Part shown: in pieces, positions 1-3,000 of the stretch
Layout: every line of letters starts with the position of its first letter
Numbering within the stretch: the first letter of the stretch is position 1
NCBI RefSeq assembly: GCF_056712565.1
Contig: NZ_CM160072.1
Strand: one strand, 5' to 3'
DNA: 64,000 nucleotides
Made by a program: the position numbers

Positions 1-3000
1 CGACCGGGGCTATCCACTTCGGCACCAAGAAGGAGATGCTGGAGCTGGCGGAACAGCGCGTAGCGAAACTGAAAGCGCGTGGTTACGAACATGCTGGCGT
101 CTACAACCCGGAAGGGGTCGGTGGTACGCACGTTATGTACGTGCTGCATCATGCCGATCAGCCGGAGCTGTATCATGGTCTGCCGAAAGATCCGAAGATC
201 GATACCTCGGTAAGCCTGTGGAAAGGCGCGTTGAAACCGCTGGCAGCGGCTGGCTTTATTGCCACTTTTGCCGGGTTGATTTTCCACTACATCGGTATTG
301 GCCCGAATAAGGAAGTGGACGATGACGAGGAGGGAAATCATGAGTAAGTCGAAAATGATTGTGCGCACCAAATTTATTGATCGCGCCTGTCACTGGACCG
401 TGGTGATTTGCTTCTTCCTGGTGGCGCTGTCCGGGATTTCGTTCTTCTTCCCGACGCTGCAATGGCTGACGCAAACCTTCGGTACGCCGCAGATGGGACG
501 CATTTTGCACCCGTTCTTCGGCATTGCGATTTTCGTCGCGCTGATGTTTATGTTTGTGCGTTTTGTGCATCACAACATCCCGGATAAGAAAGATATTCCG
601 TGGCTGTTGAACATTGTCGAAGTATTAAAAGGCAATGAGCACAAAGTGGCGGATGTCGGTAAGTACAACGCCGGGCAAAAGATGATGTTCTGGTCAATCA
701 TGAGCATGATTTTCGTGCTGCTGGTGACCGGAGTGATTATCTGGCGTCCGTACTTTGCACAGTACTTCCCGATACAGGTTGTCCGTTATAGCCTGCTGAT
801 CCATGCGGCTGCGGGTATCATCCTGATCCACGCCATCCTGATCCATATGTATATGGCATTCTGGGTGAAAGGATCGATTAAAGGGATGATCGAAGGGAAG
901 GTGAGCCGTCGCTGGGCGAAGAAACACCATCCGCGCTGGTATCGAGAAATCGAGAAGGCAGAAGCGAAAAAAGAGAGTGAAGAAGGGTTATAATCTCTTT
1001 TGAGCTTTAAGCTGAAAATGGCGCTGTAAAAGGCGCCATTTTTTTATTGTAGACAACGTGCACTTTGTTCATGCCGGATGCGGCGTGAACGCCTTATCCG
1101 GCCTACAAACCGTTCAAATCCAATAGATTGCAGTGAACGTGTAGACCTGATAAGCGTAGCGCATCGGGCAATGTTGCGTTTGTCATCAGTTTCAAATGGC
1201 GCTTTATAAGGTGCCATTTTTTTATTGCGTAACCAGACGGCGCAGTCGCGACACATCCACCGTTTTTTCCGCCTCTGCCAGACTCCAGGCATTTTGCAGA
1301 TTCAGCCACATTTGCGGCGAACTGCCGATCACCACGGAAAGTTTTATTGCCATTTCTGGCGTCAAAGCTGCTTTTCCGGTCAGCAATCGGCTTGCCGTTG
1401 AGGGCGCAATTTCCATTGCTCTGGCAAACTCGCGCAGGCTGACATTAAGTTCGTCCAGTGATTCCTGAATAATGTCCCCCGGGCGGGGATGATTGGCCAT
1501 TTTCATCAGTGATAGTCCTCGTAATCCAGTATGTATGCATCGCCATTGACGAATTCAAATGTGATTCGCCAGTTGCCCGAGACAGATATCGCCCAAATTC
1601 CATCGCGATCGCCGCTTAACGGATGTAGTCGGTAACCGGGCATATCGATATCAGCAAGACAGCATGCTGCATCAATCACAGCGAGTCGGTGGCGTAATCG
1701 TTTGACTTGCGTCGGTATAACGCCGGAGGTTTTGCCGAGAAGAAACAAGTCACGCAATCCCTTGTGTCTGAAATTCATTATCATCTCTTCATCCTTGTTC
1801 CCTCGAAAGGAACACTATCACTATTGTTCCGTACAGCGCAACAAATTTCGCTACGTTTTCGCGAATTGTGAGGGGAAAGATGGGGGAGGAAAAGAAGAAG
1901 AGTGAAATTGCGGAAAGCGTCTCGCAAAACAGGCTGCGACCCGAACATGGCAGTCGCAGCAAAGACCTCTTAGCGACGGAAATCAATCACCATACGGCCA
2001 CGGATTTTGCCTTCTTCCATCTCGGTAAATATGGTGTTGATGTCCGCTAACGGACGCAGGGCGACTTTCGGCACCACTTTGCCTTCGGCGGCAAACTGGA
2101 AGGCTTCGGTTAGATCCTGACGCGTGCCGACCAGCGAACCGACCACTTCAATACCATCCAGCACCAGCCGTGGGATGTCCAGGCTCATAGACTCCGGCGG
2201 CAGACCGACAGCCACGACACGACCACCTGCACGGACAGCATCCACCGCCGAGTTAAACGCAGCTTTAGCTACCGCTGTCACCACCGCTGCGTGAGCGCCA
2301 CCGGCTTTCTCCTGCACAATTCTGGCGGCGTCTTCGGTGCGTGAGTTAATCGCTAAATCTGCACCCATTTCGGTTGCCAGTTTTAACTGTTCATCATTGA
2401 CATCAATGGCGATCACTTTGGCGTTAAAGACATTCTTCGCGTATTGCAGGGCGAGGTTACCCAGACCGCCAAGACCGTAGATAGCAATCCACTGTCCTGG
2501 ACGAATTTTTGACAGCTTAACGGCTTTGTAGGTAGTGACCCCCGCACAGGTAATGCTGCTGGCCGCCGCCGAGTCCAGACCATCTGGCACTTTTACCGCG
2601 TAATCGGCGACCACGATGCACTCTTCCGCCATCCCGCCATCAACGCTGTATCCGGCATTTTTAACTGAACGGCAGAGCGTTTCGTTACCACTGTTACAGT
2701 ATTCGCAATGACCGCATCCTTCATAGAACCACGCCACGCTGGCACGATCGCCTGGTTTTAATGAAGTAACACCAGGGCCAACTTCTGCCACCACACCAAT
2801 ACCTTCGTGTCCCAGAATCACGCCGGTTTTGTCACCAAAATCGCCATTCTTAACATGAAGATCGGTATGACATACACCACAACACTCCATTTTCAGCAGG
2901 GCTTCGCCATGTTTCAGTGAGCGCAGTGTTTTATCCGTAACGTCAACATGATGATCCTTCGTAACAACTGCAGCCTTCATAGTTCCTCCTTTTCGGATGA

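Follow-up and report, generated by a model that had tools for sequence, protein, structure and literature searches.

A BIME-1 element between two copies of the fdnI/yddM terminator hairpin in Escherichia coli

Repetitive extragenic palindromic (REP) sequences and bacterial interspersed mosaic elements (BIMEs) count among the most abundant repeats found in enterobacterial genomes, and how they multiply is unsettled; we know of no case in which in vivo transposition of either has been shown. In a stretch of 64,000 nucleotides of Escherichia coli DNA (contig NZ_CM160072.1 of NCBI RefSeq assembly GCF_056712565.1; the whole stretch is called the window hereafter), a segment with two inverted REPs is enclosed by two copies of a terminator hairpin in the spacer of the convergent gene pair fdnI (+ strand) and yddM (- strand). 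Judged by its sequence, this segment is a full-length BIME-1, a type that has been defined as a y-type REP, an L linker and a z1-type REP (PMC3333891). BIME-1 itself, its presence or absence between strains (Bachellier 1997, as summarised in PMC1187871) and the fdnI-yddM element of strain K-12 are established knowledge, and no repeat features are listed at fdnI-yddM in NC_000913, the K-12 RefSeq record. No description of hairpin duplication at BIME-1 ends was found in the literature searched, which did not reach the key BIME papers of the 1990s. As far as we can tell, the hairpin-length duplication and the hairpin-interleaved tandem form reported here are undescribed properties of BIME-1; should the duplication already stand in those papers, the present locus would be a clean, well-documented instance of it.

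The closest precedent is the YPAL/RU-2 element of Yersinia, which is approximately 168 bp long, has target duplications of 3-26 bp and uses targets that span or adjoin dyad symmetry (De Gregorio et al. 2006, as summarised by Delihas 2008, PMC2229807). In the terms of that summary it is, like BIME-1 at this locus, a non-AT-rich palindromic intergenic element with a variable, symmetry-linked duplication; it comes, however, from another genus and apparently from another sequence family, and the two are likened by behaviour only. Miniature inverted-repeat transposable elements (MITEs) mobilised by DDE enzymes, such as Correia/NEMIS, RUP and ERIC, have in common with BIME-1 that they are short and non-coding, with terminal inverted repeats, a flanking target duplication, and sites that are filled in some strains and empty in others. 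With MITEs the duplication has a short and fixed length (often TA), whereas those at BIME-1 are 16-30 nt long, site-specific and equal to a stem-loop. A third comparison is with REPINs and their REP-associated transposases (RAYT or TnpA_REP; HUH enzymes of the Y1 type, related to IS200/IS605). REPINs also consist of two inverted REPs as a unit, each with a GTAG tetranucleotide (as found in the window, the K-12 allele being without the CTAC), they form tandem clusters that repeat flanking sequence in Pseudomonas (as given in the legend to Fig. S7 of PMC3116915), and the related IS200C has inserted at the same T-run as the element described here. Single-strand transposition of the IS200/IS605 type, in contrast, leaves no target duplication (PMC2817692), and the C|T step cleaved by TnpA_REP is absent from BIME-1 junctions. 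The favoured enzyme for REP multiplication comes from a family whose transposition produces no duplication of the target. A hairpin-length duplication defined by structure, found at a large part of BIME-1 ends, is a concrete footprint for which every mechanism has to account, and one that names intrinsic terminator hairpins as the target.

Our preferred reading, which we hold to be very probable, is that a BIME-1 inserted at a single fdnI/yddM terminator hairpin and duplicated the whole stem-loop (27 nt) to both of its sides, and that unequal recombination later changed the number of units. The original prediction had offered two explanations, a REP-containing insertion that duplicated its target or a duplication of the terminator. 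The former gained support from single-hairpin alleles, from outgroups and from the ends of the BIME-1 family; the latter, taken alone, found no support, as none of the alleles seen had two hairpins without a BIME and the ends of the repeat fall together with those of the dispersed family. The features concerned are, in window coordinates:

340-993, + strand: fdnI, for the gamma subunit of formate dehydrogenase-N; last gene of fdnGHI, with its stop codon at 991-993 (open reading frame; RefSeq annotation of a 100% identical record and of the K-12 locus)
1015-1045, + strand: hairpin copy 1 (h1), left copy of the duplicated fdnI/yddM terminator, stem 1015-1024/1033-1042, T-run 1039-1045 (repeat search, folding and terminator call; single-hairpin alleles elsewhere)
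1043-1193, + strand: BIME-1 (RIB/RIP-type) element, 151 bp by family homology (full-length alignment to other copies; family end consensus)
1073-1106, + strand: y-type REP in inverted (iREP) orientation, GCCGGATGCGGCGTGAACGCCTTATCCGGCCTAC (sequence and repeat search; sub-threshold Rfam naRNA4 match)
1107-1140, + strand: L linker of BIME-1 (alignment with other BIME-1 copies)
1141-1170, + strand: z1-type REP, GTAGACCTGATAAGCGTAGCGCATCGGGCA (sequence, repeat search and alignment)
1194-1227, + strand: hairpin copy 2 (h2), right copy of the duplicated terminator, T-run 1217-1223, overlapping the stop and last codon of yddM (repeat search, folding and terminator call)
1222-1506, - strand: yddM, HigA-family antitoxin of 94 aa (open reading frame; RefSeq product name)

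The two hairpin copies are contained in a direct repeat of 34 nt (1016-1049 and 1194-1227), identical at 31 of 34 positions and offset by 178 nt from start to start. The two hairpin-plus-T-run modules first noticed at this place are therefore real, their identity being 91% rather than about 85%; the second of them does more than abut the antitoxin stop codon, as had been stated, since both the stop codon (1222-1224) and the last codon (1225-1227) of yddM fall inside h2. Each copy is a stem-loop followed by seven T, and both were called as terminator-like on the + strand, with a GC-rich stem-loop and a U-tract from which termination is predicted. Folding energies on that strand were -19.0 kcal/mol for h1 (z = -4.8) and -14.0 kcal/mol for h2 (z = -3.3). 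On the - strand, h2 reached -8.2 kcal/mol (z = -0.8), and h1 reached -14.1 kcal/mol with four U. With its GC-rich stem, an A-run before it, a T-run after it and its place between convergent genes, each copy resembles an intrinsic bidirectional terminator; the locus departs from that type in having two copies, of which h2 is weak on the - strand.

Terminator hairpins have a general form in common (GC stem, T-run), and two unrelated ones might resemble each other by chance. This explanation is practically negligible in our judgement, given that the 31 identical positions include the loop, that the pattern AAATGGCGC-N8-GCGCCATTT with up to three mismatches had two matches in 64 kb, namely h1 and h2, versus 0.06 expected from shuffles, and that the copies are gained and lost together with the insert in population data. 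It was rejected on the strength of the identity, the shuffles and the allele series.

The 144 bp between the hairpin copies (1050-1193) hold a y-type iREP and a z1-type REP in inverted arrangement with a 34-nt linker between them, in agreement with the original prediction of two inverted REPs in this segment. The y iREP ends in CTAC at 1103-1106, and the z1 REP starts with GTAG at 1141-1144, its loop (GATAAGCGTAGCGCATC) being the short one of the z1 type. Over positions 1-144 or 3-144, the insert aligned at 85-88% with copies at pitA-uspB, yjiR-rpn, gloC-aspC, yvcK-uvrB and fepA-entD, and the linker aligned with those of six other BIME-1 copies. In the multiple alignment with other copies, homology stopped at the right exactly at the end of the insert (...CATCAGTYTC|) and at the left at the consensus CAGATTGYTGACAAAG (approximately CAGATTG), which lies a few bases within the left copy of the repeat. 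Since homology with the dispersed copies ends at the ends of the insert, the hairpin lies outside the repeat family and is local host sequence. Among the matches listed in the family scan described below, 85 full-length copies had a length of 148-153 bp (median 152), and in their consensus the ends of BIME-1 form imperfect inverted repeats (CAGATTGYTGACAAA and GAGACTGATGACAAA, 12 of 15 positions). The insert thus has the marks of a BIME-1, or RIB/RIP element (y palindromic unit, L linker with a site for integration host factor (IHF), z1 palindromic unit): its y iREP and z1 REP stand head to head, the linker (~34 nt) and the outer motifs are conserved, and it lies in extragenic DNA at the 3' ends of convergent genes. 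By eye and from sequence only, the family consensus ATTCAATATATTG of the IHF-like linker site is one mismatch away from WATCAANNNNTTR, and the window copy ATCCAATAGATTG two mismatches. Matches to Rfam were all below threshold (naRNA4, with 38 bits versus a gathering score of 59.5, and ES036).

Some further observations concern the element itself. The 3' half of the y-type REP (GCCTTATCCGGCCTAC, up to three mismatches) had one match in the 64-kb window, and the BIME-1 is therefore the only y-type REP there. Both K-12 BIME-1 units are without the CTAC of the y iREP (CCGGCCTACAAACCG changed to CCGGCATGAAAACCC; L001:1717-2106), which is one of the published TnpA_REP cleavage sites. Exact matches to the BIME-1 core were also found on contigs of 261-1,899 bp (L128, L129 and L130) from assemblies labelled Collinsella metagenome-assembled genome, Methylobacterium frigidaeris and Alkalicoccobacillus porphyridii, where they are most likely enterobacterial contamination.

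The fdnI-yddM spacer was scanned in 5,425 complete E. coli genomes. Spacer lengths fell into classes of 473, 651 and 829 bp, separated by steps of 178, and the locus is thus polymorphic in length, the absence of which in related genomes would have argued against a mobile origin. At least one BIME-1 was present in 2,986 of the 5,425 genomes, the remainder having mostly the 473-bp form, and query coverage was below 80% (the 473-bp class) in ~45% of genomes. Because one-unit alleles, through overlapping pieces, likewise attain 100% coverage of the 829-bp query, the shares of the classes were taken from evenly spaced rows and are approximate: 37% empty and 5% empty with IS200C (together ~42% with one hairpin and without REP), 35% with one unit and 17% with two units. 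The one-unit allele is that of the window strain, O157:H7, CFT073 and UTI89; the two-unit allele, hairpin-BIME-hairpin-BIME-hairpin, is that of K-12, in whose spacer Tandem Repeats Finder reported a period of 178, 2.2 copies and 95% matches. K-12-type alleles hence carry two BIME-1 copies where the window carries one, and differ from the published description of BIME-1 as single copies (PMC3333891) in having two here, interleaved with hairpin copies. The two K-12 units differ by few bases, which fits recent unequal exchange between hairpin copies. Presence or absence between strains at fdnI-yddM is in line with what is summarised in PMC1187871 for other BIME-1 loci, and across E. coli the spacer serves as a three-state length marker.

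Strains with a single hairpin and no REPs, the comparison by which the idea of an insertion was to be checked, are common: all six alleles of the 473-bp class that were read had exactly one hairpin, AAAATGGCGCTTTAAGAAGCGCCATTTT, and no REP. This hairpin differs from h1 and h2 at 3-4 positions and is no chimera of them, which argues against an origin of the empty alleles by recent deletion from the occupied alleles of the present day. In Salmonella enterica, one hairpin (AAACAAGGCGCTATCCTGGTAGCGCCTTGTTTT) stands after fdnI and before adhP, without a BIME, and a Citrobacter farmeri-like contig also had one hairpin (AAAGGGGCGCTACACAGGTAGTGCCTTTTTTTT) and no BIME after fdnI; a GGCGCT...AGCGCC stem is common to both of these hairpins and that of the E. 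coli empty allele. As both outgroups have one hairpin and no BIME, the single hairpin is ancestral, and the BIME-1 with two hairpins derived.

The opposite course of events, in which the hairpin-BIME-hairpin arrangement is the older one in E. coli and single-hairpin alleles are precise deletions through recombination between the hairpin copies, is unlikely in the light of these data. Direct repeats of 27-34 nt at 178 bp from one another can recombine, copy number does vary (two units in K-12), and both states occur within phylogroup B2, where the window strain and CFT073 are occupied and CCUG 73778 is empty. Deletion, however, does not account for one and the same hairpin sequence in six empty alleles, matching neither h1, h2 nor a chimera, nor for the retention in it of a T-A stem pair of Salmonella and Citrobacter; it is at odds with the single, BIME-free hairpin of both outgroups; and, as the insert comes from a dispersed family, its entry at some time would be needed anyway.

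The same junction point was used by a second element. In E. coli AR_0015, IS200C lies directly after the seven T of the single hairpin and without a duplication (GCGCCATTTTTTT|GTGCACAG...TATTTATTT|ATTGCG; L004:1745-2455, corresponding to window 1045/1046), and it was found at the fdnI/yddM T-run in ~5% of complete E. coli genomes (3 of 60 and 2 of 40 evenly spaced rows). Rare derived alleles of the spacer comprised a 28-bp deletion of the left half of h2 (L005:1661-1929), a 212-bp deletion of h1 and one unit from a K-12-type allele (L006:1661-1923), and IS1 with a truncated IS150 between fdnI and yddM (L007:656-2720).

The extent of the duplication can be read from the left junction of K-12 and O157, ...CCATTTT|CATATTGTAGAC or, in a longer reading, ...GGCGCCATTTT|CATATTGTAGACA. 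The CATATTG found there is one mismatch from the family left end CAGATTG, and junction and consensus together place the original duplication at 27 nt, AAATGGCGC...GCGCCATTTT, that is, the stem-loop with its A·T extension. In the window strain, a change of CA to TT next to h1 lengthens the repeat towards 34 nt and restores the seven-T tract, and an ATTG common by chance to the BIME-1 left end and the end of yddM adds to the apparent 34-nt repeat. The left boundary of the BIME-1 is ambiguous within 1043-1049 because ATTG is also present in the target and the consensus CAG reads TTT in the window. The left hairpin copy retains the upstream A-run, and the right copy the downstream T-run.

Four loci in all supplied both filled and empty sites, the empty site holding a single copy of the repeat that flanks the element elsewhere. 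At pitA-uspB, GAGCGGGTCAGTTTACTGGCCCGCTT is present once in the empty allele and on both sides in occupied ones (1,940 genomes), directly against CAGATTG... and ...CAGTCTC. At gloC-aspC, AGCCCGCTTTTCAGCGGGCT occurs once in the empty allele and twice when the site is occupied (2,811 genomes). The empty allele of yvcK-uvrB (APEC O1) has one hairpin and strain E69 two; this site is occupied in 3,677 genomes, and the allele that is common in E. coli has lost the greater part of its right copy, from which it follows that one-sided cases can arise by decay. All four loci, fdnI-yddM included, lie between convergent genes, and at each the hairpin on the flanks is the one already resident in the empty allele, unrelated between loci. 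Flanking repeats are absent at the BIME-1 of fepA-entD, which is fixed (present in 5,345 of 5,425 genomes), and this locus is therefore uninformative on empty sites.

A BIME-1 core pattern was scanned in one genome per species, which gave at least 120 loci; these, a sample of few species and not a census, came from E. albertii, E. whittamii, three further lineages of Escherichia, two E. coli and three Pseudocitrobacter. The figures that follow refer to the matches listed, at none of whose loci fdnI was found. Both end motifs were present in 85 of 185 matches, which were taken as full-length. The 50 nt to the left of each were locally aligned with the 50 nt to the right, with 3,000 permuted left/right pairs as a control; 49% of the 85 elements scored 12 or more, versus 1.6% of permuted pairs. 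After removal of array members and orthologues 40 solo sites remained; the repeat was strong at 14 of them, weaker at 7 and absent from 19. Strong repeats lay within a few nt of both element ends. The repeats were 16-30 nt long, unrelated between loci and almost all foldable as stem-loops, and their length varied by site and matched the stem-loop, which is not what a fixed, enzyme-set length would give. Counts of leading A and trailing T were mostly similar (differing by 2 at sites L039, L074 and L099), as expected for a cut at the base of an extended stem. No clear bias was seen in the orientation of BIME-1 relative to the T-run (A at 87 of 168 upstream positions, T at 98 of 168 downstream positions), because the targets are bidirectional terminators. 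Of the 19 repeat-less solo sites, many had just one flank with a hairpin or showed visible decay of the second copy.

These sites also bear on the order of events. A tandem duplication of the terminator hairpin by slippage, with later entry of BIME-1 between the copies and no duplication of its own making, would have some footing in the proneness of palindromes to slippage and in the entry of IS200C into the same T-run without a duplication. A two-hairpin, BIME-free allele was nevertheless absent among ~100 evenly spaced rows, and repeat and element abut exactly at more than 20 independent sites with unrelated hairpins, each of which would need a tandem beforehand; we regard this course as highly improbable.

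Arrays of the form [hairpin-BIME-1]n-hairpin, like that of K-12, reached nine units in Escherichia sp. MOD1-EC7003. Some of the arrays of this strain (L101, L102, L103-L105, L110, L116, L117 and L123) show alternation between two different hairpins, and a single GGCCGAACCCGGCC-like hairpin turns up at several of its loci, as though the element could carry a hairpin copy along. At L092 (Escherichia sp. E1V33), TGGTTT stands at the left end of the BIME-1 and the right side has a full hairpin and then TGGTTT, a misfit to a simple picture of hairpin duplication.

It might accordingly be proposed that hairpin and BIME-1 travel together as one larger mobile unit, and that the hairpin recombined with a similar one already resident, as the GGCCGAACCCGGCC-like hairpin between BIME-1 units at L103, L104, L117 and L123 and the hairpin inside the short TGGTTT repeat at L092 could be taken to indicate. 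Against this, the flanking hairpin is the resident, locus-specific one at fdnI-yddM, pitA-uspB, gloC-aspC and yvcK-uvrB, and E. coli and Pseudocitrobacter hairpins are, by eye, no more alike between loci than random terminators; for this proposal we see a slimmer chance still than for a prior tandem.

Near-perfect or perfect flanking hairpin repeats were found at the Pseudocitrobacter BIME-1 copies L033, L039-L041, L049, L052, L053 and L058. Such repeats suggest recent insertion activity, and Pseudocitrobacter may be the best genus in which to look for it.

Under the preferred reading of insertion with duplication of the target hairpin, the ancestral state would be one bidirectional terminator hairpin with A-run and T-run flanks, common to the convergent fdnI and yddM. 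A complete BIME-1 (~152 bp, with terminal inverted repeats, y iREP, L linker and z1 REP) would enter at this hairpin, and the 27-nt stem-loop would be copied so that one copy stands on each side. Two direct hairpin copies would then permit unequal recombination, with gain or loss of 178-bp [hairpin + BIME-1] units and, in K-12, two of them. As to the reaction, the target hairpin, extruded as a cruciform or formed as hairpins in single-stranded DNA, could be opened at its base on both strands, with a stagger equal to the length of the palindrome; the element would be joined in, and the single-stranded hairpin overhangs filled. The length of the duplication would thus be set by structure (16-30 nt at other sites) and not by a fixed enzyme stagger. 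Cuts might fall at the 3' feet (an HUH enzyme joining the 5' end) or at the 5' feet (a DDE enzyme), and the sequence alone would fit either. The obvious candidate enzyme would be RAYT/TnpA_REP. A structure-set duplication is not predicted by the single-strand 'peel-and-paste' model of RAYT. More speculatively, as both BIME-1 strands carry a GTAG-tagged REP, each might enter its own target strand at a point 3' of the hairpin, loop repair then giving two copies; if replication took the place of repair, a hairpin on one side only could result, a state also seen at BIME-1 sites. We put forward this two-strand reconciliation with RAYT as a lead, not a finding.

Several points weigh against the preferred reading. 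No transposition event was observed, and the staggered cut is deduced from sequence. About half of the solo BIME-1 sites are without a flanking repeat or have a one-sided hairpin, and at these insertion may have proceeded without duplication. The copies at fdnI-yddM differ from each other at 3 of 34 nt and from the empty allele at 3-4 nt, which implies that the event is old and that gene conversion has since altered the copies. The polarity rests on Salmonella and Citrobacter, the closer E. albertii and E. fergusonii not having been recovered for fdnI-yddM. Finally, TnpA_REP cleaves at C|T (PMC3333891), as opposed to the BIME-1 junctions YT|CAGATTG and CAGTCTC|A; the known activity of TnpA_REP thus fails to explain the BIME-1 ends, and known RAYT/TnpA_REP cleavage was discarded as their source.

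A more general proposal, that BIME-1 spreads by a reaction which recognises an extruded terminator hairpin and cuts both strands at its base, giving a target duplication as long as the palindrome, is put forward tentatively, as a possibility that we do not favour. If true, each insertion would leave a hairpin copy beside both neighbouring genes, with the REP pair between them, and this would explain a harmless build-up of BIME-1 at the 3' ends of convergent genes.

For the genes on either side, the state of the spacer would alter which hairpin ends fdnGHI and yddM transcripts. With its seven T, h1 should end those of fdnGHI. Because h2 is weak and h1 better on the - strand, yddM transcripts are likely to run through the BIME-1, and going by the predicted structures they probably read through h2 and the element as far as h1, which would place the REP pair in the 3' untranslated region of yddM. 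REPs in 3' untranslated regions stabilise upstream mRNA, and BIME-1 linkers bind IHF.

The window belongs to E. coli, positions 800-1450 being 100% identical to the type strain ATCC 11775. On the 3' side of the spacer, yddM is followed by a toxin gene and then by adhP and maeA:

1506-1784, - strand: HigB-like toxin of the RelE/ParE family, 92 aa (open reading frame; annotation; Pfam PF05015 on a homologue)

This gene is intact in the window and cleanly absent in K-12 and O157, where yddM is left as an orphan antitoxin. The deletion begins immediately behind the start codon of yddM and ends at that of the toxin gene, and the region upstream has diverged (window 1506-1784 versus L001:2349-2560 and L008:2170-2381). 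In strain CCUG 73778 the toxin gene is frameshifted.

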